From: Cyanidioschyzon merolae
Taxonomy: Eukaryota
Assembly: GCA_000091205.1 (NCBI GenBank)
Contig: AP006498.2
Reading direction: 5' to 3' (one strand)
DNA length: 64,000 bases
Made by a program: the position numbers and the translations under genes. Shown piece after piece: positions 4,263 to 61,916 of this stretch. Under the pieces are notes generated by a model that did not search any database, had not been told where the DNA came from, and saw nothing but the letters and a program-made list of their open reading frames with translations. Within the stretch, counting starts at the first letter, position 1, and each line of letters opens with the position of its first letter.

Positions 4263-5732
4263 TCAGTGCTGGTCCTTTGAGATCGGTATCCGATCCTGGC
4301 GGCTTTCGCGCTCCTCGTTGGGATCGTCACGTATTTCGAGCCGATACATCCGCACCATTTCCGGATTATCCTTTTCGGTGTACCAGTATTCCACAAAACG
4401 TCCGTCGGGGCTCTCGATTCGCTCGACATCGAGCTCGTCAAGATCGACCTCGCCAGGGCGATTTCGAAGTCGACTGACAAAATCATCGTTTCCGTTCATC
4501 CGAAAGAAGGATTCCTCGTCTTCATCGATGCTTGGTGTGAAGAGGCGGTGATCATTGGCCCTGCGCGATGCTACCGCGAAAGCATTGTTCGCATCTCGGA
4601 TGATCGGTTCTGGATGGTGCGGTTTCGGGTTGAAGCGCTCGTGCTCTTGCCGAATCATGTAACTGCGCAACAGCATTGCGCCACAAAACTGCACAGCTCG
4701 TAGAAACCACGGGTTCCTTATCAGCGCTTGAAGCGGTGAACGAGGATACCGCTCATCTGCTCGAGAGCGGCGCTTGTCATAGATGTAGACCAGCACCTGG
4801 GTATCCTCAGGTCCCGTTTCCATGCCGAATAAATCTGCTTCCAACGGGAAAACGAATCGACGAATCCCATCGTAAAGCTGCGTAATCCATGGCGTATCGT
4901 CTGGTAGCTTTCGCTCGCCGGTTTCCTCTATCACCGGGCATTTGCTGGAATTCTCTGCGACAAAGACGGGAAACCGGACGGCTTTTAGCGGCCCAGTGAG
5001 ACGTTCAATAAGTAAGTACACGTAGTCACGACGACCGCGGACGTATTCGGGGTAGCTCAGCGAGTCAGGCGGCAATGATTGACCATGGGTAAAGACTACC
5101 ATCATGTGGCGAAGCACTTCTGCCCCGAAAAATTCCATCAGAACTTTCCAATTGTGGTAATCAACTAGATCAGGGCGGGTGTCATCGAGACGCATGACGT
5201 AGAGAATAGCGTGGAAGGAACGCAGATAAGGATGCTCATCCGCACCCCGAGCGTCGAGGAGCTTTCGAAGCCGTTGGACCTGCCGTCGACTAGCTTCTAG
5301 GCCGCTGCGTCTACAAGGTGCTATCCCTGGGGTATCAATGAACTCGATCACCACGGAGTCGACTTGTCGAGCACATACTTGCGCGTTTTTCGTTCCCCGC
5401 TCCCACGCAGACACAGAGCACAGGTTCTCGTTCAGGAGCGTGTTGATCAGGGACGACTTGCCAACACCAGGTGCTCCCACGACCAGAAATCGCAGCCGTG
5501 GCACTCCTTGTCGTTCCGCTGCCAGTGCGAGACGCAGAATCGCTTGAGCAGTCGGCTCGGGTACGTCCTCAAGTGCAAGCACTTGCTCTTCGTAAACGTC
5601 AGAGTCTTCTAGAGGATAGGCAAAGGTTCCGTTTTTCCTGAACAGCGAAACAGGCCGCTGGGTAACTTGCCCAGTTCGATCTGGTGAAGCACGCTGTTCC
5701 GCTTCATTCTTGGTAGGCGTCTCCGAGTCCAT
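4263..5732 (-). CDS. TOC-family (Toc34/Toc159-type, AIG1-class) GTPase, a plastid outer-envelope import receptor homologue.
   Basis: ATG start. G1 motif VVGAPGVGKSSLINTLL and G3 motif IDTPGI. The block ILYVMRLDDTRPDLVDYHNWKVLMEFFGAEVLRHMMVVFTHGQSLPPDSLSYPEYVRGRRD is colinear with the Toc33/34 signature LYVDRLD.yRvD.lD...FG.eIw...l.VLTHAQ.sPPD.L.Y. The protein has an N-terminal roughly 80-aa extension and a roughly 190-aa C-terminal region. Confidence 0.7.
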   Translation of the reverse strand: MDSETPTKNEAEQRASPDRTGQVTQRPVSLFRKNGTFAYPLEDSDVYEEQVLALEDVPEPTAQAILRLALAAERQGVPRLRFLVVGAPGVGKSSLINTLLNENLCSVSAWERGTKNAQVCARQVDSVVIEFIDTPGIAPCRRSGLEASRRQVQRLRKLLDARGADEHPYLRSFHAILYVMRLDDTRPDLVDYHNWKVLMEFFGAEVLRHMMVVFTHGQSLPPDSLSYPEYVRGRRDYVYLLIERLTGPLKAVRFPVFVAENSSKCPVIEETGERKLPDDTPWITQLYDGIRRFVFPLEADLFGMETGPEDTQVLVYIYDKRRSRADERYPRSPLQALIRNPWFLRAVQFCGAMLLRSYMIRQEHERFNPKPHHPEPIIRDANNAFAVASRRANDHRLFTPSIDEDEESFFRMNGNDDFVSRLRNRPGEVDLDELDVERIESPDGRFVEYWYTEKDNPEMVRMYRLEIRDDPNEERESRQDRIPISKDQH

Positions 5733-6329: not shown

Positions 6330-7560
6330 TAGGATGCTTGGTCGTCGCGTTTTCGGAGTTGCTTTATCGATTTTTTGTCGCTGGTATTTCGTGAGTTACG
6401 TCCATGAAGATGATTCGTGACATCCTCGAGCAGGGGTTCGTAAATTAACCGATCTCGTTATCAAATGTATGCGAACAAGCCTGTGCTCTTCTCTGCTTGT
6501 GTGTATGATGCTCAAATCGCCTCTTTCTCATGTTTTCGACCAGCTCTTTCTTGGCAACTCGTGTGCGTGGCAACTCGTACACCTGCATCGACAATGGGAA
6601 AAATCAACGTCATCCTTTGACGGCTTGATGACAAGCTCAGACCTAGATCCCACTGCGCCTGTGACGTCAAATCATCGATTCCGTTCGAAACACGAATCCT
6701 GTTCTCTTTGCGGTCAGCGACAAAACGGCATTCCCCAGCAATACGATGCCTTTCACGGGATATGCTCCCAGATGCTCCCGTCTCTTCTGTTTCCTTGGAA
6801 AAGGGACTTGGAGTCCAACGATTGCAACGATCGCCTCGAGTGAGGAGGGTGTCACAGCTCTGCGCAGATGCACGTAGACTGAACGAAAACTCGCAACTTG
6901 CACTTCCTCATGTATTCTGCCTCCGGTGCTTGTTCCATAATGGATAGCATCGCGTTCCACAAATTCTCTATCGAGTCAGAGCGCGTGCGCTTGAACGTAT
7001 AGCGGACAGACTGCTCCTCAGGGGTATCGCCTGGTAGGAGCCCGTGATCCTATGGCACGTCATCGGGCCCATGAACAGAGGCGAGCATCGAGTGGAGCCT
7101 TCTGTACCCGCCAAGGTCTTGCACCGAGCGATGAAGCAAGCGTTCTAGCGCCACGCGGCTGCCCTCGGAGCAGACTTGAAAGCCGTCATTGGCGTACAGC
7201 AGCACCTGACCACATCCCAGTCTCACTGCTGCAAACGGCGCGCCGACGCCCTATACGAAGATGCTGTACAATGGCGAGCGAAACGTAGATCGCAACTTCA
7301 GCTTCTGCACGAAATCCGTGAACATCATCGGGAAGCCGCGAAATCCGGACTTGGACGCTCCCATCAACATCCTTCATTTGAGAACACTGGAGCTAGACGG
7401 AAAAATTTAATCGCCGGATTCAAATCCAGAGATGGTACGGAGCAAAAGGAATCAGTCACTGAACTAGCCCCAGATGGCATACGGTGTGCTGGTATCACTA
7501 CGAAACATGCCGCACTTGAGCCTCGGCATCCGTGGTAAACGACCTGTCCATTTGATCTAA
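6330..7560 (+). mobile_element. Family-Y TnpB/Fanzor-like element, copy A (decayed, non-autonomous). Boundaries are approximate.
   Basis: Nucleotide blocks shared with copies at 25200, 34230, 42196 and 62400, for example cgtaaattaaccgatctcgtta, gctcaaa..c, caactcgtgtgcgtgg, cccgtctcttctgtttccttggaaa and ccggtgcttgttccataatggata. The downstream ORF 7176-7538 keeps a degenerate zinc-ribbon/RuvC-III-like stretch SHCCKRRADALYEDAVQW...HEIREHHREAAKSGL, homologous to copy D's CHSCAARTEAVFKKYENEKR...CRKRHKRDLDAAINIL. Confidence 0.45.
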
Positions 7561-9266: not shown

Positions 9267-9946
9267 GAACCCGTGAAAAGCGATTTCCACCTAGCCTCTG
9301 CACCGCTGTTCCGGAACCATGTCGTAGACGGCACCTGATTTGCCAAACAGTTGAAACCGTGTGCACAGTGCCGTGCAGTAGACAAGAGCCCAAAACGAAG
9401 CATCGCTCTTGAATGAAAATGAGGCCGCAATGAAATCTGTAAACCGAGGAGCGTTATGTACCCGTGCGTCAAGGGTTCGAAAGGTGGATGAAAAGCGTTG
9501 GCAAACGCGAAAGCTGCCTGTGCACCTCACTGTATCCGTTGTTTCAGCACCGGTGATGTTTGCAGCGTAGGTGTCCCGCTCGCGATCGATGTCAACGCTG
9601 CGATCTGTTATCAATCGAGCGCAGAGCCAGGTCTCGTCAGCCTTTGAAATGGCACCAGACGGCGTATCTCAGAGCGAACAACGCGTCTCTCGAAGCACGA
9701 CTCGAATGATGAAGCGTCGACATCTGCTGTGCACAGTACGGATGCGAGTTCGAGGTGTCTCTGTGTGGCCGTCCGGGCATAGCCGCCCGGTGCGCCCCGA
9801 CTGGTACCGTACCGAAGCCTCGGTACTTGATGGAGCGACTCTTTACAGCTACCACACAAGAGCGATACGCAAGAGTCTCGGCTGGTACTGAGTAGCACCA
9901 CGCTTCGTATCTCCGGGTTGCAATGTCCATGATGCAGAGCGCGTGA

Positions 9947-11560
9947 TTACGCTGTGCTCTGGGCGGCGCCAAGCGCCATGGCTAAGAGCTGCAAAAGCAC
10001 CTCTGCAACGATGAGAATAATGATGATCCACTCTAATCGATGCTCGGTTCGAACGTGAACTTCATCACGGAAAAGCATAAACAGATCCTTGAGGATTTCG
10101 AGCCGTTGGTTCAGGAGTTGACCCCTTTTTTCGGTATCCAACCAGCGAGCTGTTCGCTCATAGAGCGGTTCGACCTCTTCATTCTCCCAAAACCAATCCG
10201 GTGTTCCTAGCAAATCTGTCTGGAGATTAAAGTAGCTTCTGTACAAGTGTACCTCGCCGCTCATGCGCATGACATCGCGAGCACCTAGCCGAAGTTCGCC
10301 GAAACGCACCAGGTCCAGTGGCACATTGCCACAGCGCTCAATCAGAAGATCGACACTGTTCTCGAAGGAGCCCAGCTTGCAAGACTGGGCCAGTGCGTGC
10401 GAGATACCCGCTTGGACCTGAACCAACTCTTCGTCGCTGAGGTCGGCCTCCTCTAGTTGCGTCCATTCGTTTTCCGCTTCAGCGTTTGGATCTAAAATCG
10501 CCGCTGGAGGTGCTGCGATTCGCATGCCAACGAGCTGAGAGCGCTCGACCAACGCCCCCGGGAGCATGATGTTGTCGTTCTTGATTCGGGCCTTATCTGC
10601 CTCGTAACTATAAGTGTAGGTGAAGAATTCTTTCTCCATTTCCGCAGGTGATAACTGACCGTTTTCAAACGCTTGGAGCCAGTCTAAAATGCCCCATTCG
10701 CCAGCTTCGGATAATCCCCAACACACGAGGGTACCATACGAGAAGAAAAAGATAGCAGCGCCAGCGACAACATCTTCCACTTCTTGGTTATCGTCAAGCG
10801 CAAAGCTCGGGTCCAGCGCCTCCTCTGCGTCCATCGTTCTCCACGACGGGTCCATGGTGCGATTCATGCGCTGCCTCGCGAGACCTGCTCGGTTCTGCTG
10901 ATCGTTTGGCGGGGATGCTGTTGTTGGCAACATCTCGGTGTGTTCGTCACCGGATCTATCGTTACCACAAGGGAGCCTGCTCCCTCGAGCGTCTTCCCCG
11001 GATCGGAGAAGTTCTCGAATAGCGCCAATACGGCGTCGACTTGGGCGCCTCTGGAGCAGAAGCAGGTCTCGCGATAGACGCCGTACCGTCAAGTTGGCTT
11101 TCGAAGTTATCTGCTGCAGCGCTGCGTACAGCGCCCGCAAGTCATACGTTGTGCACGTGCAGTATGTGGATAACCGACCAACAAAGCCAAGTGCTGCTTT
11201 CTCGCGCAGAGGTTCCTCCCGCTCGAGACGTGCACGATGTCGGAGGCCGGTTTTGCGAGGCAGCGGCATCGTCGGCGTCGGCGCCGCCCCAGACGGGTTC
11301 CCGACACCACCGCCAGCAGCGCTCGGTGCTACTAGCCCGGAAACATGCGCTGGACCTGTGGTTCCAGCGCCCAGTGCAGCCGGTTGAGAGAGGTCTAACT
11401 TGATCTCATTGGGTGTTGGCAGCGTCCCTGCGGCTGGTGCACCAGAAGCACCAGCCTGGAACGAGGTTTGGCTCGGCGGTAACCGCGTCTCAGGTGTGCC
11501 ACTGCCGATCGCTGAGGCAAACTGTTTCAGAAGCGCCGTTCGCTCACTTGGCGCCGACAT
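9947..11560 (-). CDS. DUF155 (Rmd1 / Sif2 / plant RRG-like) protein with a low-complexity N-terminal region.
   Basis: ATG start. The core AIFFFSYGTLVCWGLSEAGEWGILDWLQAF...IKNDNIMLPGA and the C-terminal hydrophobic tail TEHRLEWIIIILIVAEVLLQLL match the DUF155 family layout. The N-terminal roughly 230 aa is A/G/P-rich. Confidence 0.5.
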   Translation of the reverse strand: MSAPSERTALLKQFASAIGSGTPETRLPPSQTSFQAGASGAPAAGTLPTPNEIKLDLSQPAALGAGTTGPAHVSGLVAPSAAGGGVGNPSGAAPTPTMPLPRKTGLRHRARLEREEPLREKAALGFVGRLSTYCTCTTYDLRALYAALQQITSKANLTVRRLSRDLLLLQRRPSRRRIGAIRELLRSGEDARGSRLPCGNDRSGDEHTEMLPTTASPPNDQQNRAGLARQRMNRTMDPSWRTMDAEEALDPSFALDDNQEVEDVVAGAAIFFFSYGTLVCWGLSEAGEWGILDWLQAFENGQLSPAEMEKEFFTYTYSYEADKARIKNDNIMLPGALVERSQLVGMRIAAPPAAILDPNAEAENEWTQLEEADLSDEELVQVQAGISHALAQSCKLGSFENSVDLLIERCGNVPLDLVRFGELRLGARDVMRMSGEVHLYRSYFNLQTDLLGTPDWFWENEEVEPLYERTARWLDTEKRGQLLNQRLEILKDLFMLFRDEVHVRTEHRLEWIIIILIVAEVLLQLLAMALGAAQSTA

Positions 11561-12159
11561 AAGCCGCTACCCTGCGCTGAGAAGCGAGGCCTGTGTCCCG
11601 CGACTAGGCGCAGGTACGCCTCAGATCCAGTGCCTGCAGATGACGCCATGGATGTTGTCAGGAAATGTCGCATTTGGCGGGATGCTTGCTTTTTGGTATT
11701 TATGTCCATTATTATCTATACGTTTTCAGATTGCCTTTTGATGATATTTATTGGGCAGGCGGGTTCCTCCTCGCCGGCCAGGGATCCTCGATCGCGCCCT
11801 TGCCACGAGCACGCAGCGGCGTATTCCGCGTACCGCGCCCTATTGCCGAGTACCACCGCGCGCACTTTCCCTCGGAGATATGAATTCGTTTCCAGGTTCT
11901 CATCGGTGTTCGATACTGCCTTGAGCTGCGCTGCACCTTCTACGATGCAGTTTCCAGTGGCGTTGGTAGCAGATGTCGAGTAGACGAGCATCGCTGGACA
12001 CCGGTTACGCCCGACAGAACGCGGATCCGTCTGAGCGTGGCATCATCGTTGACCCTTTTATAGAAAGTGGAGGATCTTTTTCGCACGAACCGGGCCAGTC
12101 TGGACAGCGCGATGCCTAAAGGTATTCGGGAGCCCGTCTGGAATGCGGAATCGCACGAT

Positions 12160-18274: not shown

Positions 18275-19109
18275 TGCCGTTCGCTGATGACGAGTGCTCG
18301 TTGTTCGTCTATCGACACGATCATGGCGGCGCCCGAGCGTTTCGACTCGATGGTATCGTGGACCGGGTCGCCACCTGGATCGGACAGCTGTAGACAGTCC
18401 CGATTCCAGACAAGAGGCATGGAAACGGCCGACGTTACGGAAGCAGCTCCCGGGCGGGCAATGTCACGCTAAATTCGGGCTAGACGAGGTCGCTGCTTCC
18501 GATGCTAGGCTTGCGCGTCTTGGAAGGAAACGTATTGATCATCACACAAACATGCGGTTCGTACTGGAGTCCGTAGCTGTGATTCCCAAACTGAGGTAAC
18601 GGATCATTCCCGCACAGCCAGTGCATCGACGAACGCATCAGATACCTCAGGGTACGTTTGCGTGCCTGGAATATAAACGATAGCCCGCATTGGCTAGGCA
18701 GCTCTTTACTGGCCGCGTTGCAGCTTTGGTACCGCATCCGCAGTGTCCAGCATGCTCGCGGTGGGCGTTACTGGCTCGACGCGGCTCCCGCACCGTCCAC
18801 GCTTGTGTATCGAGCAGCGTCAGGTGCGCGCCCTGCGACGTAGACGCCGCTGCAAGAGACAACTCCTTCTTTTGCTCAGCTCGACGCTGGCGTCATGATG
18901 CAGGCTCGAGCGAGCGGGTGCGTGCTCACGCTTGAGCAACGAAAACGCGGCCAAGACGTTCCAGATGGCAGCATGCGCTTCTCCAGGTACGCGTGTCGCG
19001 TACGGTGTATCCGGCTTTGCGTCCAACAGCCAGCAGTTGCCCGCGTGTTCTTGTATGGATCTGGTGCTGCATTTGCTTCACGTATTCATTCCGAAGCATC
19101 CGAAGAGCA

Positions 19110-19310
19110 TCGATAGATGCTGGCACTCGGGTGCAACAACAACAACAACAGCAGCGATCTATGCGCAAAGCAATATCCTCGTGTTACGGTAGCCGGGCAC
19201 TGTAGTCATCGATAGATGCTCGCACTAGGGTGCATCAACAACAACAACAGCAGCGATCTATGCGCAAAGCAATATCCTCGTGTTACGGTAACCGGGCACT
19301 GTGTTCCGTG
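19110..19310. repeat. Tandem duplication of two units of about 100 bp, each containing a (CAA)n(CAG)n microsatellite.
   Basis: The unit atcgatagatgctggcactcgggtgcaacaacaacaacaacagcagcgatctatgcgcaaagcaatatcctcgtgttacggtagccgggcactgtagtc is repeated immediately with about six substitutions. Confidence 0.6.
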
Positions 19311-19575
19311 TGCCGTGCGAACTACAAGTCGTACGACATGCTCGACTCGCGTGCAAACTCCCAGTTCAGTACCAGGAAGCTCGACATCCTCGCCATGCGA
19401 TCTCTCTCAACACCGTTACGTCCCAGCGCGATAATCTCGAGGCACCAGCGGGTACCCGTGTCTCGTGTGTCCTCCTATCAGCGGTGACAGCAGTTGTCGC
19501 TCTCTGCTGATCAAGGCACCTATCCAATACTTTGCAATCGCAGTCAATCGTCGTCTAGTGCCTCCAGTGCACGGT

Positions 19576-21222
19576 TCAAAGCATTTCTCTGAGCCGCCGC
19601 ATACGACGCGCCAGCACCACGTGCGGTTCATCTGGTTCCACCGGAAGCACCGGAAATGGCTGGCCTCGAGCACGATCCACAATCAGTGCGTTTGCCGCCT
19701 CAAGACCCGTCACATAGGCCTTCTCCTGCGAAAATGAACCGTGCCTGGTATCGATCCAGTCGCCCGCAAAGTAGACATTATTTTGAAGGCCTGCATCCGT
19801 GGCGCGAACTTGTGGAAAGTGTCTGTAAGAGCCCGGCCGAAAGTGCGTCACAGCTCTGGGTGCACGAACCACAGTCGAGTCTATGACGCGAGCTTCGTTC
19901 ATGGCAGAAGCAATGCACTTGCGCAGAATCCGGTCACAGTGCTCCACAATCGAGTCATTATCCCAGACCAAGAGCGACGATGCGCCGTACAAATCCATTT
20001 CAATGACCTCACCAGGTGCATCACCAAATGACTCATCGTGAAGCGCATTCAGATCGAAAAAGGTGCCACCGATATCAGCATCAAAGCCGAAAAATGCATT
20101 ACTCGGACGGTGGAGACGCATTCGGCGATCATAGTACAAGCGTACTGCAAGAACATCTACACTTCCCAAATGCATGAAGCGGCGAAACTGACTCGAGTGT
20201 TTCGCGAGCGCTGCCGACTGCCGTACGAGCGCCTGGGCCCCGGAGATACCCACTGCGAAGATGACGGCATCAACGGGCAGGCGTTCTGGACTATTGCCCC
20301 CGTCCTGCAGCATGAGAGCGTCAACATGGCCTCTGGTTGGATGCAGATCAACGTCGACTACGCGGGTGCCTAGGCGCAGGTCGAGGCCGCGCTGTTGCGT
20401 CATGACTTGTAGCCAGGGTTCGAATACGCGCTCTGCTGTGGTGCCACGGACCCATTTCACGTCAAAGTCACTTTGGTGCGCGAGAATGAAATAATAGAGC
20501 ATACCCAGCGCACCGCTCGCAGAGCACAGCTCACTCGGCGCAAACAAGCCTACCAGTAGCATCGGTTCGAACGCGTTTGTGATGAGACGTTCACTACAGC
20601 CGTAGCGGGTGAAAAGCTCTCGTGCCGTCATCTGGTCATATTTTCTCCATGCTTCTGGCGAGTTGTCAAAGTCTGCCACGGCGTCGAAGAGCGCGAACGC
20701 TGAAAGTCGATCCATCCACGGCAAGCGATAGAAGCGCGGATATATCATGGTGCCGAGTGGGCTCGGTAGTCGTGGCAGCTCGCTAAAGAGCGGCGACTCT
20801 GCTTCCAAACCGGCTGGCGAGTACTGGGCGCTACGGGTGAATCGCGTGAAAGGGTCTGCGTCTCCTGCTAGCCTCAACTGACGATAGACCAGGTCGAAGA
20901 TATTTACATAAGGCTTCCAGAAACCGTGGACGCCAACCTCTACCGGCCTGTTTTCACGCTGAACCCAGCCAGCGGCAAGGCCCCCGATGGATTCACGGCT
21001 CTCGATGAGCGTCACGTGGAAAGCCTCGCGGTTCCGTGGAGAGCTCGTAAGCGCATGGGCAGCGCCGAGTCCAGCCCAGCCCCCGCCGACGATCGCGACC
21101 CGCAGCGGTCTTGTTCTCGATTCAGGGTCCGCGCTTGCAATGCAAGTTCGAAGGCAACGCTGGCGACTGAGGTTCTTGCAGTGACGCGACTGTCGCCTGG
21201 TTGGAAGCGCGCTCTGAAACAT
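19576..21222 (-). CDS. FAD-dependent amine-oxidase-superfamily oxidoreductase, a PDS/ZDS-like carotenoid desaturase homologue, with an N-terminal extension.
   Basis: ATG start. The dinucleotide-binding motif RVAIVGGGWAGLGAAHAL...VTLIESRESIGGLAAGW, the HGFWKPYVNIFDLV block (compare PDS/ZDS GLH.FFG.Y.N...L) and the C-terminal VYFAGDWIDTRHGSFSQEKAYVTGLEAANAL (compare LAGDYTKQ.Y..SMEGA.LSG) place it in this family. A roughly 35-aa basic N-terminal extension is consistent with organelle targeting. Confidence 0.65.
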   Translation of the reverse strand: MFQSALPTRRQSRHCKNLSRQRCLRTCIASADPESRTRPLRVAIVGGGWAGLGAAHALTSSPRNREAFHVTLIESRESIGGLAAGWVQRENRPVEVGVHGFWKPYVNIFDLVYRQLRLAGDADPFTRFTRSAQYSPAGLEAESPLFSELPRLPSPLGTMIYPRFYRLPWMDRLSAFALFDAVADFDNSPEAWRKYDQMTARELFTRYGCSERLITNAFEPMLLVGLFAPSELCSASGALGMLYYFILAHQSDFDVKWVRGTTAERVFEPWLQVMTQQRGLDLRLGTRVVDVDLHPTRGHVDALMLQDGGNSPERLPVDAVIFAVGISGAQALVRQSAALAKHSSQFRRFMHLGSVDVLAVRLYYDRRMRLHRPSNAFFGFDADIGGTFFDLNALHDESFGDAPGEVIEMDLYGASSLLVWDNDSIVEHCDRILRKCIASAMNEARVIDSTVVRAPRAVTHFRPGSYRHFPQVRATDAGLQNNVYFAGDWIDTRHGSFSQEKAYVTGLEAANALIVDRARGQPFPVLPVEPDEPHVVLARRMRRLREML

Positions 21223-51985: not shown

Positions 51986-52178
51986 GATTCGGGACAACAA
52001 GTCGGAAATGCTGCTCGCGCGCACCGAAACCGCACCGCGTTCGCGTGTTCGGTACAGCGTCGATGCGAGCGCTTGGTACACAGACACGCAGGAACTGGGC
52101 GTTGTTGTTCGCCGTGGGCGATTCCCTTCAAAAGCTTGATAGTTTTCGCTTGGACTTCAGTTACTAGTGATCAGAACG

Positions 52179-52469
52179 ATGCAAGCGTTGAGGGCTTGCC
52201 GCGGCTTTGGACGCTGGAGCACTGGCGCCACGACAGCGCCGCAGCGCTGTCCGCGACGTTCGTTTGCTAGCCACGGTTCGGACGCGGACTACAACGAACC
52301 AACTGGCAGGCTCTTTCCTGAGTGCTATGATGAGAATGGTGTGAAGCAGAGACAAGGTTGGGAGACGGTTACATATGCTACATATGGTTTGACGTTCGTA
52401 CTTTTGGTGTTTGGGCTGAGCAACAAACCCGAGTCTAGAACGCTGCAGCGCGAGCGGAGGAAACCCTGA
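52179..52469 (+). CDS. Candidate small mitochondrial membrane protein of 96 aa (presequence plus a single TM helix). Speculative.
   Basis: First ATG of track ORF 52167, whose own start is GTG. MQALRACRGFGRWSTGATTAPQRCPRRSFAS is Arg-rich and lacks acidic residues, like a mitochondrial presequence. The hydrophobic helix is TVTYATYGLTFVLLVFGL. Its position downstream of the AT-rich island is consistent with a small gene. Confidence 0.25.
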   Translation: MQALRACRGFGRWSTGATTAPQRCPRRSFASHGSDADYNEPTGRLFPECYDENGVKQRQGWETVTYATYGLTFVLLVFGLSNKPESRTLQRERRKP

Positions 52470-53899
52470 GGAGCAGCGGCACTGGCTGTCACGCTGTACG
52501 AAACTCGCGGAGAAACTGTCCAGCAACCCATGTCCGACTCGAGTGGTGGTGCTGCTGTCTCTTCTGGACTTGGTGTTGTCTGGCGTGTTGTCACTGGGGC
52601 AGGCGGCTCTGCTCAAGAGCATGGTTCAAGCTATCTCGTTCCTGGTGCTGGTTCACAGGCGTCGTGGTCAGCATACCATGTCGGTAATACGTCATTGTTA
52701 TAGCAGCTGGACGACGTATGCGTCTAGCACTGAGCACCGCACAGACCGGAGTTCATCGATGACGTGCGTGAATGTGTTTGAGAGATCGTTTATCGGGGCA
52801 GACGACGAAATAGCCCCCGACACGCTGCCATACTGTGTCAGGCATTTCATCGCTCATATCCGCACACAGGTGCACGCGTCTTTGGCGACATGAACGTAGC
52901 CATACGTTCAATACCTGTTACGAACCGATGCGATCATGACCCAGTTTGGTATGCCGGGTCAGTGCGGAGGTATGTGCATTGTGTAGACACGAGACGGACA
53001 CAGGCCTTGGGAACAGTACCAGCCGACGCACCATGATGCTGGCCCTTCATTGATCGACGACGAACAAGCACAAACCATTGAGCACGGTGCGTTCCTTCGG
53101 CTCTGGAAGCTATGGGCATCTGAGGGCAAACGAGGGGCCTGCAACGAGTCTACCCTGCGCATCGTTCACCTTGAAACCTAGGCTCCGGCATCCAAGAGTC
53201 GCGCACCTACGATACGCAGGCGTTCAACGTCGCCGCATGAGCGCGTCGCGTTTGCCGCTTCATCGACCAACGTGCCGCCGACGTCATAGGATCGATGTGC
53301 CGGCAGCGGGCAGTTTCCACGCATCTATCGCGTCTACCGGGAGGCTACAAAAAAAAGCCACCCGCCAATGTTGCTGCTGCGCATGCTGCCTGCGGTTTAT
53401 TCACAGGCAACAGATCCGTTTATCCCATGCGTCTTCGAATACCTCCGAATGTGTGGGCATCACGTCCAACGCACCGACCCTACACGATAAAGCATGCCGC
53501 TGCCCAGAAGTCGTCACTCTTTGCCTGATGGAGGTTGCACGAATCCATGCAGGGATCTTAGAACACTCGACGTGCATCATCATCCAGATATGCGAACCCT
53601 AGTACGTTTCATCAGCTCAAAGCTCCACCGAGCATTACCCCAGCGTTCCCTGCAAAGGTCTCTCTTCGCTCAAAAATGAGCCCCTGCGTGCCGTGCCTGC
53701 CTCAACCGCTTACCACAGCACTGAGCACACCGGTGCAGACGCAGCACGCAGACAGAACGTCTTCACAGAACCAGTGAACGTACCAGCTCGACGACACCCG
53801 CTGCCCTATGGCGTGCCGCAGGTTCCCCGTTCGTCTCTTTTGCAGCGTTCTTGACGCCTCTGCGAGCACCCCTCGAGTTGCGCACGGCACCGGTACTGA

Positions 53900-55716
53900 T
53901 TTATCATGAAAAAATCGAACGCAACACGATCAATTGCATTCAGCACTGAGGTCTATCATGAAAAAATCGAACGCAACACGATCAATTGCATTCAGCACTG
54001 AGGTCTATCATGAAAAAATCGAACGCAACACGATCGATTGTATTCGGCACTGAGGTCGATCATGAAAAAATCGAACGCAACACGATCGATTGTATTCGGC
54101 ACTCAGGTCTATCATGGAAAAATCGAACGCAACACGATCGATTGCATTCGGCGGTGAGGTCTATCTTGAAAAAATCGAACGCAACACGATCGATTGTATT
54201 CGGCACTGAGGTCTATCATGAAAAAATCGAACGCAACACGATCGATTGTATTCGGCACTGAGGTCTATCATGAAAAAATCGAACGCAACACGATCGATTG
54301 TATTCGGCACTGAGGTCTATCATGAAAAAATCGAACGCAACACGATCGATTGTATTCGGCACTGAGGTCTATCATGGAAAAATCGAACGCAACACGATCG
54401 ATTGTATTCGGCACTGAGGTCTATCATGAAAATCGAACGCAACACGATCGATTGCATTCGGCGGTGAGGTCTATCATGGAAAAATCGAACGCAACACGAT
54501 CGATTGCATTCGGCACTGAGGTCTATCATGAAAAAATCGAACGCAACACGATCGATTGTATTCGGCACTGAGGTCTATCATGGAAAAATCGAACGCAACA
54601 CGATCGATTGCATTCGGCACTGAGGTCTATCATGGAAAAATCGAACGCAACACGATCGATTGCATTCGGCACTGAGGTCTATCATGGAAAAATCGAACGC
54701 AACACGATCGATTGCATTCGGCACTGAGGTCTATCATGGAAAAATCGAACGCAACACGATCGATTGTATTCGGCACTGAGGTCTATCATGGAAAAATCGA
54801 ACGCAACACGATCGATTGCATTCGGCACTGAGGTCTATCATGGAAAAATCGAACGCAACACGATCGATTGCATTCGGCACTGAGGTCTATCATGGAAAAA
54901 TCGAACGCAACACGATCGATTGCATTCGGCACTGAGGTCTATCATGGAAAAATCGAACGCAACACGATCGATTGCATTCGGCACTGAGGTCTATCATGGA
55001 AAAATCGAACGCAACACGATCGATTGCATTCGGCACTGAGGTCTATCATGAAAAAATCGAACGCAACACGATCGATTGCATTCGGCACTGAGGTCTATCA
55101 TGGAAAAATCGAACGCAACACGATCGATTGTATTCGGCACTGAGGTCTATCATGAAAATCGAACGCAACACGATCGATTGTATTCGGCACTGAGGTCTAT
55201 CATGAAAAAATCGAACGCAACACGATCGATTGTATTCGGCACTGAGGTCTATCATGGAAAAATCGAACGCAACACGATCGATTGTATTCGGCACTGAGGT
55301 CTATCATGGAAAAATCGAACGCAACACGATCGATTGCATTCGGCACTGAGGTCTATCATGAAAAAATCGAACGCAACACGATCGATTGCATTCGGCACTG
55401 AGGTCTATCATGGAAAAATCGAACGCAACACGATCGATTGTATTCGGCACTGAGGTCTATCATGAAAAAATCGAACGCAACAAGATCGATTGCATTCGGC
55501 GGTGAGGTCTATCATGAAAAAATCGAACGCAACACGATCGATTGTATTCGGCACTCAGGTCTATCATGGAAAAATCGAACGCAACACGATCGATTGCATT
55601 CGGCGGTGAGGTCTATCATAGAAAAATCGAACGCAACACGATCGATTGCATTCGGCACTGAGGTCTATCATGGAAAAATCGAACGCAACACGATCGATTG
55701 TATTCGGCACTGAGGC
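53900..55716. repeat. Tandem satellite of about 35 copies of a 52-53-bp unit.
   Basis: Unit tgaggtctatcatg(a/g)aaaaatcgaacgcaacacgatcgattg(t/c)attcggcac. Variants include gaaaaaatc or ggaaaaatc, tgtattc or tgcattc, ggcact or ggcggt or ggcactc, and occasional 1-bp deletions; edge units are more diverged. Each unit contains the palindrome atcgat. The track ORFs in this interval on both strands (53986-54261, 54320-54568, 54350-54571, 55046-55294, 55076-55297, 55438-55713) are frame artefacts of the repeat. Confidence 0.95.
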
Positions 55717-56007
55717 GCGATGGCGCGCGCGCAGCCAAATCCCCGCCCCGCAGTGAGTCGCTGCAGCGCTCCGTTCATCATCGGATAAGGCGGGATGCGC
55801 TTCTCCTTGGGCGGTGCCAGTAGGGAGGCCACGGACGCAGCCAGTGTACGCGGGTTGTACTTGGGTATTCGTTTGTTCGGTTGTGTGTGTGTGTTCGTGT
55901 TCAATCGACTGATCGTTCGATCATACCTGGACGGAGGTACTAGCTTGTTGTGGAGTAAGTTTTTGAGCACTGTCTGAAGAGGTGCGTGGTCCAGTCAGGT
56001 CTATGCT

Positions 56008-58002
56008 ATGCTTTTACGTCTATCGCAAGTTGACGCTGTCTGGCCGGTGGTGCGATCAGGGCGTGCGCGGGCGCTCTTGGACACGGTAGCTCAGCAGGAT
56101 GCGATAGTCGATGCGTTGCTGTGGCCACAGCAACTTTCAGAGAGCACTCTGCAACGTCGTGGAAAGCGAACTGTAGCGCCGGCGCACCCGAGCGACGGGC
56201 TGCAAGCTGGACGGCGGCAGGTTTCGTCGCAGGCTGCAATGTGTTTCCTGGTGGCGCCAAGCGTAGACGCGCTGGCTGCAACTCGTACGCTAACGCTGCT
56301 GCTCCAAGCCGAGTCTATACCCTATCACATATATCCCATCCACGATTACCGCGAACTGGAAAACTTGCAGTGCGGTGGGCGCTCGGTTTTGGGATCGATG
56401 GACGTGCAGGACACCTCGCCGTTGCGGGCAATTGTTTGTGTGAACTGCGGTGCGGGTGTCGATATTGCCGCTCTGCTTCGTCTTCCTGAGGACAGCGATC
56501 TGCCCGTTCTTGTCATCGACTCGCATCGTCCGTATCATTTGCGCAATCTGCAGAGCGCCCATGTGATCCTCCTGCATGATTCGGACGTTTTTGAGGTGCA
56601 GTTGCCGCCGAGCGGCGCAGAAGATGCCCTGGGGCAGATCCTGCCCATGGACCCGGAGGCGCACGTTGATGACGCCACATCCAGCGACTTGGACACTGAC
56701 GCAGATACGTCCCCACAGGACGCAAGGAACCGGCGACGTCGGCGCAGGGGCTTCGGATCGGGCATCCAGCGCGCTGTCCAGCGTTATTACCGACGAACGG
56801 AGCGAGCCGCGAGCGCTGCAGGTGTAGCGTACGCGCTTGCTGCGAACCTGAACCGTGCAGATCTGGACACCTTATGGTACTGGATCCTTGCTGTTACGGA
56901 GCAGTTTTTTGATCGCCAAGCGAGCGATACGGCATGTTACGAGCAAATTGTACGCTGTATCCGGGAGGAATGGAAACGCATCATTTCTCGATTATCAACC
57001 GATGATGATAACGGTGATGGACAGAAAGACGCGCTGGCACCTCTCGAGCCGTCGACTGAGTTCTCTCTGGAACTGCTTCGCCACTGGACTCTTTACGATA
57101 GTCTTATTCATTCGACGTGGCTGGCAAGTCGGGTTCAACGCTGGCGTCAGGAAGCCGAACGAAGTATCAGCGAGATTCTCGCCCTGCTAGGCATTCCGCT
57201 GCGCGAGAGCAAACAGCGATGGACGCATCTCGCTGCTGAACTCAAGGATAGGGTACGAGAGCGTCTTATTCCAGTGTTATGCACCTATTTTACTCGTCGC
57301 GAGTCTGATGCGGGGCGAGTACGCACAAACAGCCGATGTCGACGTTCGGCTATTGCGAATACTTTGTGTTATGAATCCTTCGTGCGACGTTTTGGTGCAC
57401 ATCGCGGGCAAACGGTGTCGGCCGCTGATGTTGTGCTGGCGGCAGGTGCTCTTCTCGATCGGGGCCATTTCTGGCGAGCATACGCTCTTTTGCAATGTCG
57501 ACATATCGACGACATGGTACCAGCATTTGAGCTTGCGAAGCGAAGCCAGCGCCTCTTGCTCGAAGCGGCTGTAAGCGTGCTGGAACGCCGTGCCTACACT
57601 CGCGGACGTCATGCCTGGTGCGCAATGCTGGACGGACCGCCCCTGCTCGCCGCGAAGATAGAACGCAAGCTCCATCTTCAAAGACGCCTAGCGCTCGCTT
57701 TAGGAGACTGGTTTTATGGCACAAAACGCCATCCGAAACCGCTCTGGCTGATTGTAGACAGTCCACAGAGTGAGCACGCAACGGTCACACTGGTAACACC
57801 TCAGCGCTCTGCAAGCGAGGACGCGGTGAGCGCCACTTGTGCTGAATGCGATCTGCGTGCCTACGCACAGACTTCAGCGACAGCAGCTACTTTACTGGCG
57901 CCTGCGTTTCATGGTTGCGAACCTGTCCAGGCTTCGCTCGGGTCAGGCTCGGTGCCGGACCTGAAGGACCTCCTCACACGCGGGCTCTCCGCACGGCGAT
58001 GA
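56008..58002 (+). CDS. CDC45: CDC45 (CMG helicase component of the replisome).
   Basis: ATG start. N-terminal region FLVAPSVDALAATRTLTLLLQAESIPYHIYPIHDYRELENLQ...VNCGAGVDIAALL...LVIDSHRPYHLRNL (compare human [40 protein letters not shown]...INCGANVDLLDIL...FVCDTHRP), then an acidic loop, RADLDTLWYWILAVTEQFFD, FSLELLRHWTLYDSLIHSTWLASRVQRWRQEAERSISEILALLGIPLRESKQRW, and a C-terminal TVTLVTPQ. Confidence 0.8.
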   Translation: MLLRLSQVDAVWPVVRSGRARALLDTVAQQDAIVDALLWPQQLSESTLQRRGKRTVAPAHPSDGLQAGRRQVSSQAAMCFLVAPSVDALAATRTLTLLLQAESIPYHIYPIHDYRELENLQCGGRSVLGSMDVQDTSPLRAIVCVNCGAGVDIAALLRLPEDSDLPVLVIDSHRPYHLRNLQSAHVILLHDSDVFEVQLPPSGAEDALGQILPMDPEAHVDDATSSDLDTDADTSPQDARNRRRRRRGFGSGIQRAVQRYYRRTERAASAAGVAYALAANLNRADLDTLWYWILAVTEQFFDRQASDTACYEQIVRCIREEWKRIISRLSTDDDNGDGQKDALAPLEPSTEFSLELLRHWTLYDSLIHSTWLASRVQRWRQEAERSISEILALLGIPLRESKQRWTHLAAELKDRVRERLIPVLCTYFTRRESDAGRVRTNSRCRRSAIANTLCYESFVRRFGAHRGQTVSAADVVLAAGALLDRGHFWRAYALLQCRHIDDMVPAFELAKRSQRLLLEAAVSVLERRAYTRGRHAWCAMLDGPPLLAAKIERKLHLQRRLALALGDWFYGTKRHPKPLWLIVDSPQSEHATVTLVTPQRSASEDAVSATCAECDLRAYAQTSATAATLLAPAFHGCEPVQASLGSGSVPDLKDLLTRGLSARR

Positions 58003-60012
58003 GCGAGTGTCGCTTATCTCGCTAACTGCATCCGATGAAGACGGCACACTGCCCCGCGCGCTATGTTCATGTTAAGCAAATTTTTCCGAAAGTTTCCCAG
58101 GTGTGCAAGCTTGATAATTTGTATGAAGCAATGAGTACGTTTCCAGTCGTACATCGATTTAGGATTGTGCATCGGTGTTGTGGAGTGCTTTTTCAGAATA
58201 TTTTGCGGGCGGCATTCGTTCGTCATGAGAATGAAGATGATTCGTGACGCCCACCGCCTACGATTCCTGGAGTAACCGATAGGGCCGTCCAACGCACAGG
58301 TACAAGCCTCCACTCTTCTGCTTTCCCAAAGAGCAGTATACCCAGGTCACGCATGCTTCACGTTTTCGATACGTCTCTGTGGAGCGATACTTCATGGGTG
58401 AAGCAAGTTGCGCCGCTGCATGAGCAGCTCGAAGAAAGTCTTGTTCATCGTCATCCGTTGACGACTTGGTCACCCGCTCATGCCGAACGTTCACTGAACA
58501 TCGCACCTCAAGCAATCGACTCGGATCGAAACGCAAATCCTTTTCTCTTTGCGAGCATCGGTGAGCCTGCATGCCACTGCAGCATGATGCCAGCTCGAGT
58601 GCTATACTCGCAGCGGCTCCCGTGTATCGTGTTTGCGTGGAACATCGTTTTAGAGTTTATTCACCGCAGCGATCACTTGACATGGGGATTGCGTCAGCGC
58701 TCTATACGAAGCGAGCGTAGGCAGATTGAACGTTCTCGATTTCATCTGCAGCCTGGAATTTTCTTCCGATTCTTGCTCTACCTTGGAAAAGATTGCGTTC
58801 CGCTGATCCCCTTCTCTTCCGGATAATATCATCGAACACAGGGTGGTTCATCCTCTGTTCTCCAGCTTATCTTCCGTGATTCAATACCATGGAGAACGTT
58901 TGCGGTACCGTGGACAACAAATTTAGCGAAGCAAATGCACGTTTCGATGCACCGGAACCTGCTCGATGCTTAGTGGTGCTCGACGCTTTGGGCACCGCGA
59001 CTGCGTCCACCGGGGCTCTTCGGAGCTTGTTCTACGAAATTCGTTGAGGTTTGCGGATCTCATATTTCCATCGAGTCATGAAACAAAGAGATGAACGAGC
59101 CACAAAGAATGAGTATGGATAGCTTGCTCATCTATGGCGGCACATAGCCCATGCACACCTGGCATGCTACGGATCCTACAGTTTACCCGCAACGCAGATG
59201 CCCTAAAGCGTTTCGAAAAGAGGTGCGCAGCTTTCGCTGAGAACGTCGCCATTGTCAGACGGAACGCCTGGCTGCGAGAAGCCCATCGCTTTTCTCTGAC
59301 GCTACGATAGTGAAGCGATCGCCTATGAGATACGAACGCTTGCGAGAACATAGACCTCGTGTAGACACATATGCACTTGTTCGAAGGATGCCCCAGCAAC
59401 GCGCTTGCCGCTATCCATGTTCGCGTACCCTGCTCCAAGCATAGATCGTTGCAGGAGCCAACGCGTCGCCACACCGTGTACCACGGAGGTCGTCTCAGGG
59501 ATCCTGATGCACAACGACCGTTACCAGCGTCGTTGTAGAGAAAGCGCAGCTCAGGCGCCGATGCACCACACTGCTGGTAGAGGTTTCCTCTGGAACGTAT
59601 GAACCCAACCCATGGACCAAGAACTGTGATCGTTCGCATATACCATCAGGCGGTCTTGTTCGCGTTTCGGCAGCTAGTGGAGGTGCACCCGTCTTGGGCA
59701 CGAAGTGTCGTCATTGTACACGAGGCCGCGCATGGCAAGTACGCCTGCAGAAGCTCCGCGTGAGCCATAGGGCATGCTGTCCCGCGTTTTTTACTCTGTC
59801 TGCTGGCACCATGCTGGGCTGCCTCGGCAGACACAGTCCGCGGATACAGATCTGGAGAATTCGCACTTGCAGATGAGTCTGTTCTGAGCGCCGGCACAGC
59901 GCGTTCTAGTTTACGATTCCCGTAGAAAGGAGGCGGTTGTGGGTGTCCCAACGAGCTGTCCGCCAGAGCGCCAGCGATCCGCAGTATTCGTTCATAGGCT
60001 TCCTGGACCTGC

Positions 60013-60034
60013 AGCACACACACACACACACACA
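60013..60034. repeat. (CA)n microsatellite.
   Basis: cacacacacacacacacacacg. Confidence 0.8.
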
Positions 60035-60548
60035 CGTGTCTCGTCGCTGGGATCGATATGCGCTTTGCACGAGCACCTGCGCAAATCACCTGGCGCGCTA
60101 CAAGTTCGCCAATGCGTTGCGGTTGCCTGCTCTGTCACAAGGCGGGATGCCATACATGGACGCACCTAGTGCATGCACGTCGTTCATGGTTCCTGGGTCA
60201 GCGTATTCGACCAGTACCCGTGCAGAAACCTGGAATCCGAGCAGATGTCGCATCTCAGGCAAGCTCCTGCAAAAGAGCATGCCATCAGTACCTCTGGATA
60301 CGTACGGATCACGATCTGTCTCTTGACAATCGCAGTCGACACGTCTGAATATGCAGAGCTGCGCTTTCGGGCATTGCGAGGCAGTCTCTCGCCAGTTGAC
60401 ATCATGCCAATACTGCCTCCTGCGACATGTGAAACGCGGGTGTCCGCCTCGACCTCGTCGCGAGTGCTGAACTAAATCGTTCCTACTTCATCGGGAGTCT
60501 CTTGACTCCACTGTATGTCGGCTACTGGCCTCGGATGCGTCCAGTGCT

Positions 60549-61916
60549 CTAGAGATCCAATTTGGTGCCCCGTCGGATGACACCCCAGCCGATCAGCCGC
60601 CAGTGCCGCTCAATACGCCGACTCAGAGCGATTTTCTCGCCTTCCTCCGTACAAACCGGAGACGTCAAACGCAGTTTTGCGAGATCGCGCTTTGTAGCCA
60701 GCACCCGACCACCAGTAGATGTTGAGCCAATGTTCACCATGAGGATCTCGTCTTTGGTTAGCTTGCTTACGCGTGCTCCATCAGCGCCCTCGGTTTTAAC
60801 GCCCAACAACCGTCTGAGCAGGAAAAAGTTAATCTCAATTTCCGTGAAAACCGGGGGTAACGTGCCGACTGCACCAAGCACTTGGCCAACAAGGCGATCA
60901 CCTCGGGTAAGCGTCGGGTCAATCTTGGTACCCACTCCTATGAGTCCGCCCGGAACCGCGTATTGCAACTCGTTGCGCTCGGCGTGCATCGAAACAATTT
61001 TCGAGATAATCGGCTGGCACTTGAAGTTTCCTTCTGCGTCCTTGATGGTGATCCCCGGTCGAATCTCGATAAGATCTCCGACTCGCAGCACGCCTTGCAT
61101 GATCGAGCCGCCGGCAACACCACCGCGTAGATTCTCTACGTCTTCGCCCGGTTTGTTCACGTCAAAACTCCGAATAATAATCATCCGCGGAGGCGATACA
61201 AAATCCCGCCGTGGAACGGGCACATGTTTAATGAGGTATTCGACGACGACATCGACGTTGTATCGCAACTGGGCGGAGATCGGCACGATTGGAGCCTGCT
61301 CAGCAACAGTTCCCCGGATGAAGTTCTTGATCTGCTCATATTGTGTGCGTGCTGCAGATTCGTCCACTAAGTCGATTTTATTTTGGCAGACGATGATACT
61401 TCGGAGCTGCATGACCTCCACGGCGGCGAGATGCTCGGAGGTCTGCGGCTGCGGACAGCTCTCGTTCCCAGCGATGATCAGCAGCGCCGCATCCATAACT
61501 GCAGCTCCGTTCAGCATCGTGGCCATGAGAATATCATGGCCTGGACAGTCGACAAAACTCACGTGACGCTCCAACCGTAGTCGCTGTCCGCAGCCCGGTA
61601 CCTCGCACGGTAACGAGTCCGGTGCGTCCGATGGGAACGCTCGATAGCAGTAAGGTCGCGGACACTCGGGCCGCTCGCAGCGGTAAAGCTTCGCATTAGC
61701 ATACCCAAGCTTTATAGTGATGTTGCGCTCAAGTTCATTGCGGAAACGAACTGTCTGCACACCGGAAATGGAGCGCACGAGTGTCGACTTGCCGTGTGCG
61801 ACGTGCCCGATCGTTCCGATGTTTACCGTGGCTTGCCGGGAAATCACCTCCGGGGTCAGCGGTGTAAGCTCCTCGACCTTTAGCTTAGAAAGATCTTGGA
61901 CAGCTAAACCTGACAT
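60549..61916 (-). CDS. Translation initiation factor eIF2 gamma subunit.
   Basis: ATG start. [49 protein letters not shown] (eIF2-gamma G1 and switch regions), the zinc-ribbon cysteines CPRPYCYRA...[53 protein letters not shown], and [10 protein letters not shown]. The antisense ORF 60562-61566 is spurious. Confidence 0.9.

Follow-up and report, generated by a model that had tools for sequence, protein, structure and literature searches.

Classical single-locus minisatellites (VNTRs) are known in animals, fungi, and plants, and the human INS VNTR is an example that lies close to a promoter. They are built of a non-coding unit of tens of base pairs that is repeated head to tail in tens of copies at one locus, they contain interspersed unit variants with a homogenised interior and divergent edges, and their structure varies between individuals far more than the DNA that flanks them. 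The satellite centromeres of plants and animals are also head-to-tail tandem repeats with a homogenised interior.

In Cyanidioschyzon merolae, the centromeres are regional. According to the summary of Kanesaki (2015) given in bioRxiv 10.1101/096016, each chromosome has one CENH3 region of 2-3 kb, and the mean GC content of these regions is 48.4% as opposed to 55% genome-wide, with “no other apparent pattern”; a passage of PMC11005252 likewise speaks of “short low-GC centromeric regions”. The subtelomeric elements of the same species comprise eight types, reach up to 20 kbp, and adjoin AATGGGGGG repeats (Nozaki et al. 2007, PMC1955436). Unlike the hosts of classical VNTRs, the genome is known for a very low repeat content, with 0.7% transposable elements and 5% “WSV repeats” in the figures cited in a passage of PMC5405695.

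The locus described here lies in a 64-kb stretch of DNA that was analysed as a whole (hereafter, the window) and that belongs to chromosome 16 of C. merolae 10D, whose length is 908,485 bp (Table 1 of Nozaki et al. 2007, PMC1955436); the CDC45 and eIF2-gamma encoded in the window match BAM81900.1 and BAM81901.1 of this strain exactly. The gene content is that of an ordinary, gene-dense part of a chromosome arm: the window codes for an AIG1-family GTPase, an aminotransferase, RMND1, a WD40 protein, an amine oxidase, a proteasomal AAA ATPase, NifU, an S41 protease, a pullulanase-like protein, mitochondrial L36, CDC45, and eIF2-gamma. The AIG1 GTPase gene at 4263..5732 is probably CMP284C; this identification, together with the protein index P003173 set against cumulative gene counts, suggests that the locus appears at about 80-90% of the length of chromosome 16, a position deduced rather than measured.

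A tandem array of a 52-bp unit occupies the spacer upstream of CDC45 (Table 1). The genes on either side of this spacer are both on the + strand, so that it includes the region at the 3' end of the gene before it together with the promoter and leader of CDC45. Specifically, the real upstream neighbour of the array is a 100-aa ORF with 65-74% amino acid identity at the syntenic position in Cyanidiococcus L012 and L009 (tblastn). The 174-aa ORF that lies nearer to the array has no Pfam match and no tblastn match in the Cyanidiococcus loci, though the neighbouring genes match there, and it is probably not a gene; the lack of a counterpart for this ORF and the conservation of the 100-aa ORF place the array within a spacer of 3.5 kb. 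The ATG assigned to CDC45 is sound, since the N-terminus of the protein aligns from residue 1 with that of Cyanidiococcus CDC45, and the gap between the last base of the array and this conserved start codon is 292 bp, in line with the approximately 290 bp given in the first-pass annotation of the window.

Table 1. Features of the array locus upstream of CDC45 (positions are those of the window).
Feature	Position	Strand	Evidence or remark
100-aa ORF	52167..52469	+	conserved; no Pfam family; real upstream neighbour of the array
Intergenic spacer holding the array, 3.5 kb	52470..56007	.	flanking-ORF conservation; GC
174-aa ORF just upstream of the array	53078..53602	+	probably not a gene
Decayed partial unit, left boundary	53878..53901	.	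direct reading of the sequence
Tandem array, 35 units of 52 bp	53902..55715	.	TRF, 25-mer scan, unit map, GC
GC-rich right boundary, cgcgatggcgcgcgcgcagcc	55716..55736	.	direct reading and wild-strain contigs
CDC45, 664 aa (BAM81900.1 / XP_005537936.1)	56008..58002	+	Pfam PF02724, E=3.8e-75

The consensus unit is TATCATGGAAAAATCGAACGCAACACGATCGATTGCATTCGGCACTGAGGTC. TRF calls one large array in the window, with a period of 52, 35.0 copies, 96% matches, and a score of 3264, and a direct reading of the sequence agrees with this call. The core 25-mer AAATCGAACGCAACACGATCGATTG has 35 matches at no more than 3 mismatches, all on the + strand and all within the array, against 0 matches expected from a shuffled-sequence control. 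Two of the 35 units measure 50 bp through the loss of AA from the A-run, and the others measure 52 bp; the earlier count of about 35 head-to-tail copies of roughly 52 bp is thus borne out. The ATCGAT palindrome that had been attributed to every unit is present in 33 of them, while both units at the left edge have ATCAAT in its place. The period is not divisible by three, and the ORFs inside the array, which run on both strands, are stop-broken and only 82-91 aa long, as expected of the artefactual frames that had been noted there; a coding repeat was rejected on these grounds.

The units fall into 14 variant types in the order EEHFIBBBCGJDCAAACAAAADAGBCCDABKFLAM. Both edges of the array consist of rare types and the interior consists of runs of one type, and no strict higher-order period is present in this 35-unit variant map. 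The mean difference between units of the 10D array is 2.0 per 52 bp over all units and 1.24 among interior units, which upholds the earlier description of a homogeneous interior with diverged edges. The array has a GC content of 44.4%, as opposed to 56.6% and 57.5% in the spacer on either side and 54.6% in the whole window, and the lowest-GC 2-2.5 kb of the window coincide with the array stretch (45.9% and 47.8%, the latter over 2.5 kb).

The two boundaries differ in kind. At the left, TTGCGCACGGCACCGGTACTGATT is similar to the 3' part of the unit, TTGCATTCGGCACTGAGGTC, and this partial unit may be a remnant of the original single-copy sequence; the left junction is identical in the wild contig L001. 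At the right, the last unit ends after CACTGAGG and is followed directly by the GC-rich stretch that the first-pass annotation had pointed out, and every strain whose contig extends this far has the same junction, with no more than point differences (CGCAATGG in L013 and L016). The left partial unit and the truncation point of the last unit have GGCAC in common, which possibly served as a microhomology for the first duplication of the 52-bp unit.

Contigs of wild C. merolae from metagenomes were reached via exact-protein look-ups, and their flanks are 98.8-99.6% identical to the window. The same array occurs at the same junctions in all wild contigs that extend to the locus. Two of these, L001 and L002, have 7 units with both flanks present; L016 has at least 16.3 units and ends within the array; and the L008, L013, L003, and L004 contigs start or end inside it. 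The apparent unit counts in wild contigs are therefore 7, at least 9.7, and at least 16.3, vs 35 in 10D, and short-read collapse may affect these lengths. The array is structurally polymorphic between strains: the differences in unit sequence are secure, whereas those in copy number may reflect the collapse of repeats in short-read assemblies.

The unit variants are largely strain-specific. Only 3 exact unit types are common to 10D and L016, which have 14 and 10 types, respectively. The 10D array is dominated by GCATTCGGCACTGAGG with ATGGAAAAA, and that of L016 by CAGCTCCGAGG and CAGCACTGAGG units, many of which carry GATCAATTG; the units of L001 are GAAAATATCGAACGCAAT. The edge units of 10D (type E, with GATCAATTG and CAGCACTGAGG) resemble the common units of L016, from which the two left-edge units of 10D are separated by 2.31 differences and its interior units by 3.36. 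The mean difference between units is 3.1 per 52 bp within L016 and 3.54 per 52 bp (6.8%) between 10D and L016, while the flanks of these two strains are about 1.2% divergent (98.8% identical). Divergence that is lower within a strain than between strains, combined with divergent edges, is what concerted evolution through slippage or unequal exchange classically produces; on the comparison of unit sequences, the array is thus under concerted evolution, with units that are alike within a lineage and edges that escape homogenisation, and the recent concerted evolution proposed from 10D alone gains support from the wild strains.

The unit is confined to this locus in the sequences covered. The core 25-mer occurs at no second place in the 64-kb window, and in the metagenome collection, which consists of short-read assemblies, an exact match to it is found in two contigs, both from this locus and one of them a C. 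merolae contig of 152 kb; the viral contig collection has 0 matches. A single-locus distribution is thus well supported, though not proven, over the window and the metagenome assemblies. In the sister genus Cyanidiococcus, whose CDC45 is 57% identical to that of C. merolae, the gene order pullulanase - L36 - 100-aa ORF - CDC45 - eIF2-gamma - GT64 - L27 is kept, the syntenic spacer DNA is not alignable, and the 52-bp unit is absent from it. A comparison of the whole spacer with L009 and L012 (blastn, word size 7) for a proto-unit returned only a chance match of 25 bp. Presence in wild C. merolae and absence from Cyanidiococcus indicate that the array is specific to the C. merolae lineage and predates the split of the sampled populations.

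These observations are best explained if the array is a locus-specific, non-coding, hypervariable minisatellite (VNTR) in the upstream spacer of CDC45, which turns over by slippage and unequal exchange and needs no sequence-specific function, a reading to which we assign a probability of roughly 80%. Like classical VNTRs, it has a head-to-tail unit within the range of about 10-100 bp, is polymorphic between strains, shows the pattern of concerted evolution, and is non-coding. The first-pass annotation had offered a local minisatellite expansion as one of several possibilities, and had reasoned that a unit absent elsewhere and variable among individuals would be an ordinary minisatellite; the occurrence of the array at the same locus in wild strains, with variable units, at no other locus of the sequences covered, and not in the sister genus corresponds to that description. 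Under this explanation, a 52-bp stretch of the spacer would have been duplicated, plausibly via slippage between the short GGCAC microhomologies; replication slippage, unequal sister-chromatid exchange, or gene conversion would then have driven the growth of the array and its continuing turnover; and this turnover would homogenise the interior units of each lineage while older variants stay at the edges. We infer both the mechanism of slippage and unequal exchange and the selective neutrality of the array from these patterns. A selected element would likewise be retained in every sampled C. merolae population and lie as close to the start codon of a cell-cycle gene as the array does (292 bp). 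The literature on C. merolae that was searched contains no published mention of the array, a hitherto undescribed case of a familiar class of sequence.

A function in gene expression is improbable, even though the array is on the same side of CDC45 as the promoter, ends 292 bp short of the ATG, and is kept in all sampled C. merolae populations. As a cis-regulatory module of CDC45 or as a boundary towards the upstream gene, it would offer 35 factor-binding sites that tune or insulate the promoter, and the candidate sites in such a module are the AATCGA...TCGATT and CGATCGAT palindromes. In two Cyanidiococcus lineages, too, short tandem repeats, though unrelated ones, precede CDC45 (L009 9610-9874, L012 9057-9207), which counts in favour of such a role. 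However, no known motif was identified in the unit, and the CDC45 protein is identical across strains in which the sequence of the units and the apparent length of the array differ freely. Moreover, the Cyanidiococcus repeat units have no detectable similarity to the 52-bp unit, two further relatives (L025 and L026) have no minisatellite upstream of CDC45, and low-copy tandem duplications are common in the spacers of these genomes (window 19108-19302, L001 19140-19381, L009 19591-19773, L012 7210-7439). Given how common such duplications are, repeats upstream of CDC45 in three of the five lineages (C. merolae, L009, and L012) do not exceed chance, and a conserved habit of carrying them was rejected.

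Still less probable is that the array marks a replication origin, a fork-stalling site, or a fragile site, of which its instability would be a by-product. The array has an intergenic position, a higher AT content than the DNA around it, and a structure that is unstable between strains, all of which would suit such a site; however, there is no positive evidence for one, and the physical properties computed from the sequence are unremarkable. Specifically, hairpin- or cruciform-prone DNA was considered and rejected, as three units folded as single-stranded DNA reach -22.7 kcal/mol (z=-1.71) and 10 of 200 shuffles fold as well. Intrinsic curvature caused by A-tracts that recur in phase every 52 bp (4.95 helical turns) was rejected too: in a wedge model, the ratio of end-to-end distance to contour length of the array is 0.43, inside the range of 0.09-0.68 spanned by five control regions, and arrays of shuffled units are as compact in 4.4% of cases, a weak departure. 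No origin maps of C. merolae were found in the literature searched.

The proposal that chromosome 16 has its centromere at or around the array, as a short low-GC region on which CENH3 is loaded, has a lower probability again, and the same small chance is given to the array being the CENH3-binding core there or some other landmark of the chromatin, for instance an origin. Like the regional centromeres of C. merolae, the array is kilobase-scale, intergenic, and below average in GC, and its 1.8 kb form the GC minimum of the window, which fits the low-GC regions of 2-3 kb reported for the species. This resemblance discriminates weakly, since other intergenic GC troughs in the window reach 49.7-49.9% at the same scale and about 48% GC is therefore not distinctive of a centromere; besides, the low GC stops at the edges of the array, and the adjoining spacer is at 56.6-57.5%. 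Where the summary of the centromere map describes sequences without a shared or repeated pattern, the region is a 35-copy tandem repeat and thus an obvious pattern. The satellite centromeres of plants and animals offer a closer structural parallel, and three units make up 156 bp, which is roughly the size of a nucleosome. In contrast to such satellites, the array is only 1.8 kb long, is devoid of a pericentromeric repeat context, and has an essential gene, CDC45, that begins 292 bp away; a related family on other chromosomes, as satellite centromeres have, was not detected, the exact 25-mer being seen at no second locus in the window and the short-read metagenome assemblies. The location of the locus at an apparent 80-90% of the chromosome also speaks against a centromere, as does that of the syntenic Cyanidiococcus locus, at 729-750 kb of an 849-kb contig and hence about 100 kb from the contig end. 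Finally, with 261 protein genes on the chromosome, a given spacer has a prior probability below 1% of being the centromere. Papers that cite Kanesaki et al. 2015 were searched for CENH3 coordinates of chromosome 16, and none were found. If the array were such a CENH3-binding core after all, it would be a rare repeat-based centromere with fast turnover between natural strains in an organism to which pattern-free centromeres of unique sequence are ascribed.

The least probable of these alternatives is an artefact of the reference assembly, either in the presence of the array or in its 35 copies, which we consider very unlikely. The short-read metagenome assemblies show 7 units (L001, L002) or break inside the array. 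Strain 10D itself can no longer be obtained, and for the two strains derived from it the resequencing relied on 2x125-bp reads alone, which yielded about 2,650 contigs (PMC7291098). Against this stand at least five independent assemblies from different samples with the same junctions, one of which has at least 16 units, and an aperiodic pattern of 14 variants that is unlike a collapsed or duplicated consensus. Within the 10D array, exact repeats reach at most 235 bp and no 250-mer occurs twice, so that Sanger reads can tile the 1.8-kb array unambiguously; assemblers with k of 141 or less cannot resolve it, which accounts for the broken or short versions in the metagenomes. The assembly error that the first-pass annotation had raised as a caveat is therefore not borne out.

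The remaining candidates gained no support. Subtelomeric elements of C. merolae are, like the array, repeated DNA in an otherwise repeat-poor genome; however, they are dispersed duplications common to chromosome ends, whereas the array is a short-unit repeat amid single-copy housekeeping genes that are conserved and syntenic with Cyanidiococcus. A search of the 64-kb window for a dimer of the telomere repeat AATGGGGGG at no more than 2 mismatches found none, and proximity to a telomere was rejected; the subtelomeric region suggested earlier is thus not supported for this gene-dense arm region. An RNA gene was likewise rejected, with 0 Rfam matches at gathering thresholds and 0 tRNAs by ARAGORN in the whole window, and a mobile-element or viral origin, with 0 matches in viral contigs.

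As an ordinary minisatellite, the array is mainly of practical value and would not surprise a specialist. It is a ready hypervariable marker for strains and wild populations of C. merolae, in which the flanks diverge by only about 1%, and a predictable site of breakpoints or collapse in short-read assemblies of this species. Moreover, it is relevant to the engineering of the CDC45 promoter and to the choice of “neutral” integration sites on chromosome 16. Only if the array bound CENH3 or replication factors would it be informative about what specifies centromeres or origins in a eukaryote with a minimal genome.

CDC45 and eIF2-gamma form a convergent (tail-to-tail) gene pair at 56008-61916 of the window. 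When the four related loci L009, L012, L025 and L026 were compared, this arrangement was found to be kept in C. merolae, in Cyanidiococcus and in the GC-rich relative L025, in which CDC45 identity is only 38%, and the CDC45/eIF2-gamma microsynteny is unusually deep. At the L012 locus (Cyanidiococcus yangmingshanensis, GCA_013995675.1, VWRR01000002.1), CDC45 (9976-11897) is annotated with a product of 490 aa, while tblastn recovers the full-length protein over three pieces (9976-10254, 10256-11236 and 11295-11897); the split points to erroneous frameshifts, or to a gene model cut short, in this assembly. The pullulanase-like gene of the same locus is also broken up, into models of 603 aa and 838 aa. 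Its counterpart in the window (see the table) has a GTG as the listed start and carries about 690 N-terminal residues without a Pfam match; in metagenome gene calling the protein comes out at 1787 aa.

Features of the window and their coordinates
Feature	Coordinates	Strand	Remarks
AIG1-family GTPase, 489 aa	4263-5732	-	
Pullulanase-like protein, 1816 aa	44590-50040	+	PUD, CBM48 and alpha-amylase domains
152-aa antisense ORF	52164-52622	-	overlaps the 100-aa ORF; Cyanidiococcus identity 44-52%
100-aa ORF	52167-52469	+	conserved in Cyanidiococcus, 65-74% aa identity
CDC45 leader and promoter stretch, 292 bp	55716-56007		

The AIG1-family GTPase, which serves here solely as a rough positional landmark, is probably the 'Toc34 homolog' CMP284C, whose role in chloroplast import was put in doubt by a 2022 PNAS paper (PMC9407449). 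The 100-aa ORF matches no Pfam family; it contains the hydrophobic stretch TYATYGLTFVLLVFGL, and its N-terminal region looks like a targeting sequence. Metagenome gene callers pick the antisense 152-aa ORF instead (e.g., minus strand, 7609-8067 of L001, a wild C. merolae contig); this ORF has the lower identity of the two and is probably on the wrong strand.

The CDC45 leader and promoter stretch includes a (TG)n microsatellite (~55882-55894) and the GC boxes GGCGCGCGCGC, CCCCGCCCCGC and GGCGGGAT, which loosely resemble E2F-type sites and are candidates only.

Elsewhere in the window, a 99-bp x2 tandem duplication (19108-19302, 95% matches) that includes a (CAA)n/(CAG)n run sits in the intergenic spacer between the WD40 and amine-oxidase genes. 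L001 and L009 have comparable duplications, each in two copies (L001, 120 bp, 19140-19381; L009, 89 bp, 19591-19773), so low-copy tandem duplications seem common in these spacers.

Small repeats lie upstream of CDC45 in two distinct Cyanidiococcus-like lineages, namely 29 bp x2.6 and 84 bp x2 in the L009 spacer (9610-9874) and 47 bp x3.2 in that of L012 (9057-9207); a further small tandem repeat of L012 is located at 7210-7439. The L009 and L012 repeats have no detectable relationship to the C. merolae 52-bp unit, and the CDC45-upstream spacers of L025 and L026 contain no small tandem repeats. The occurrence of repeats at this position in C. merolae, L009 and L012 is probably a coincidence, the spacers being repeat-prone; their presence in several lineages could hint at a slippage-prone region upstream of CDC45.
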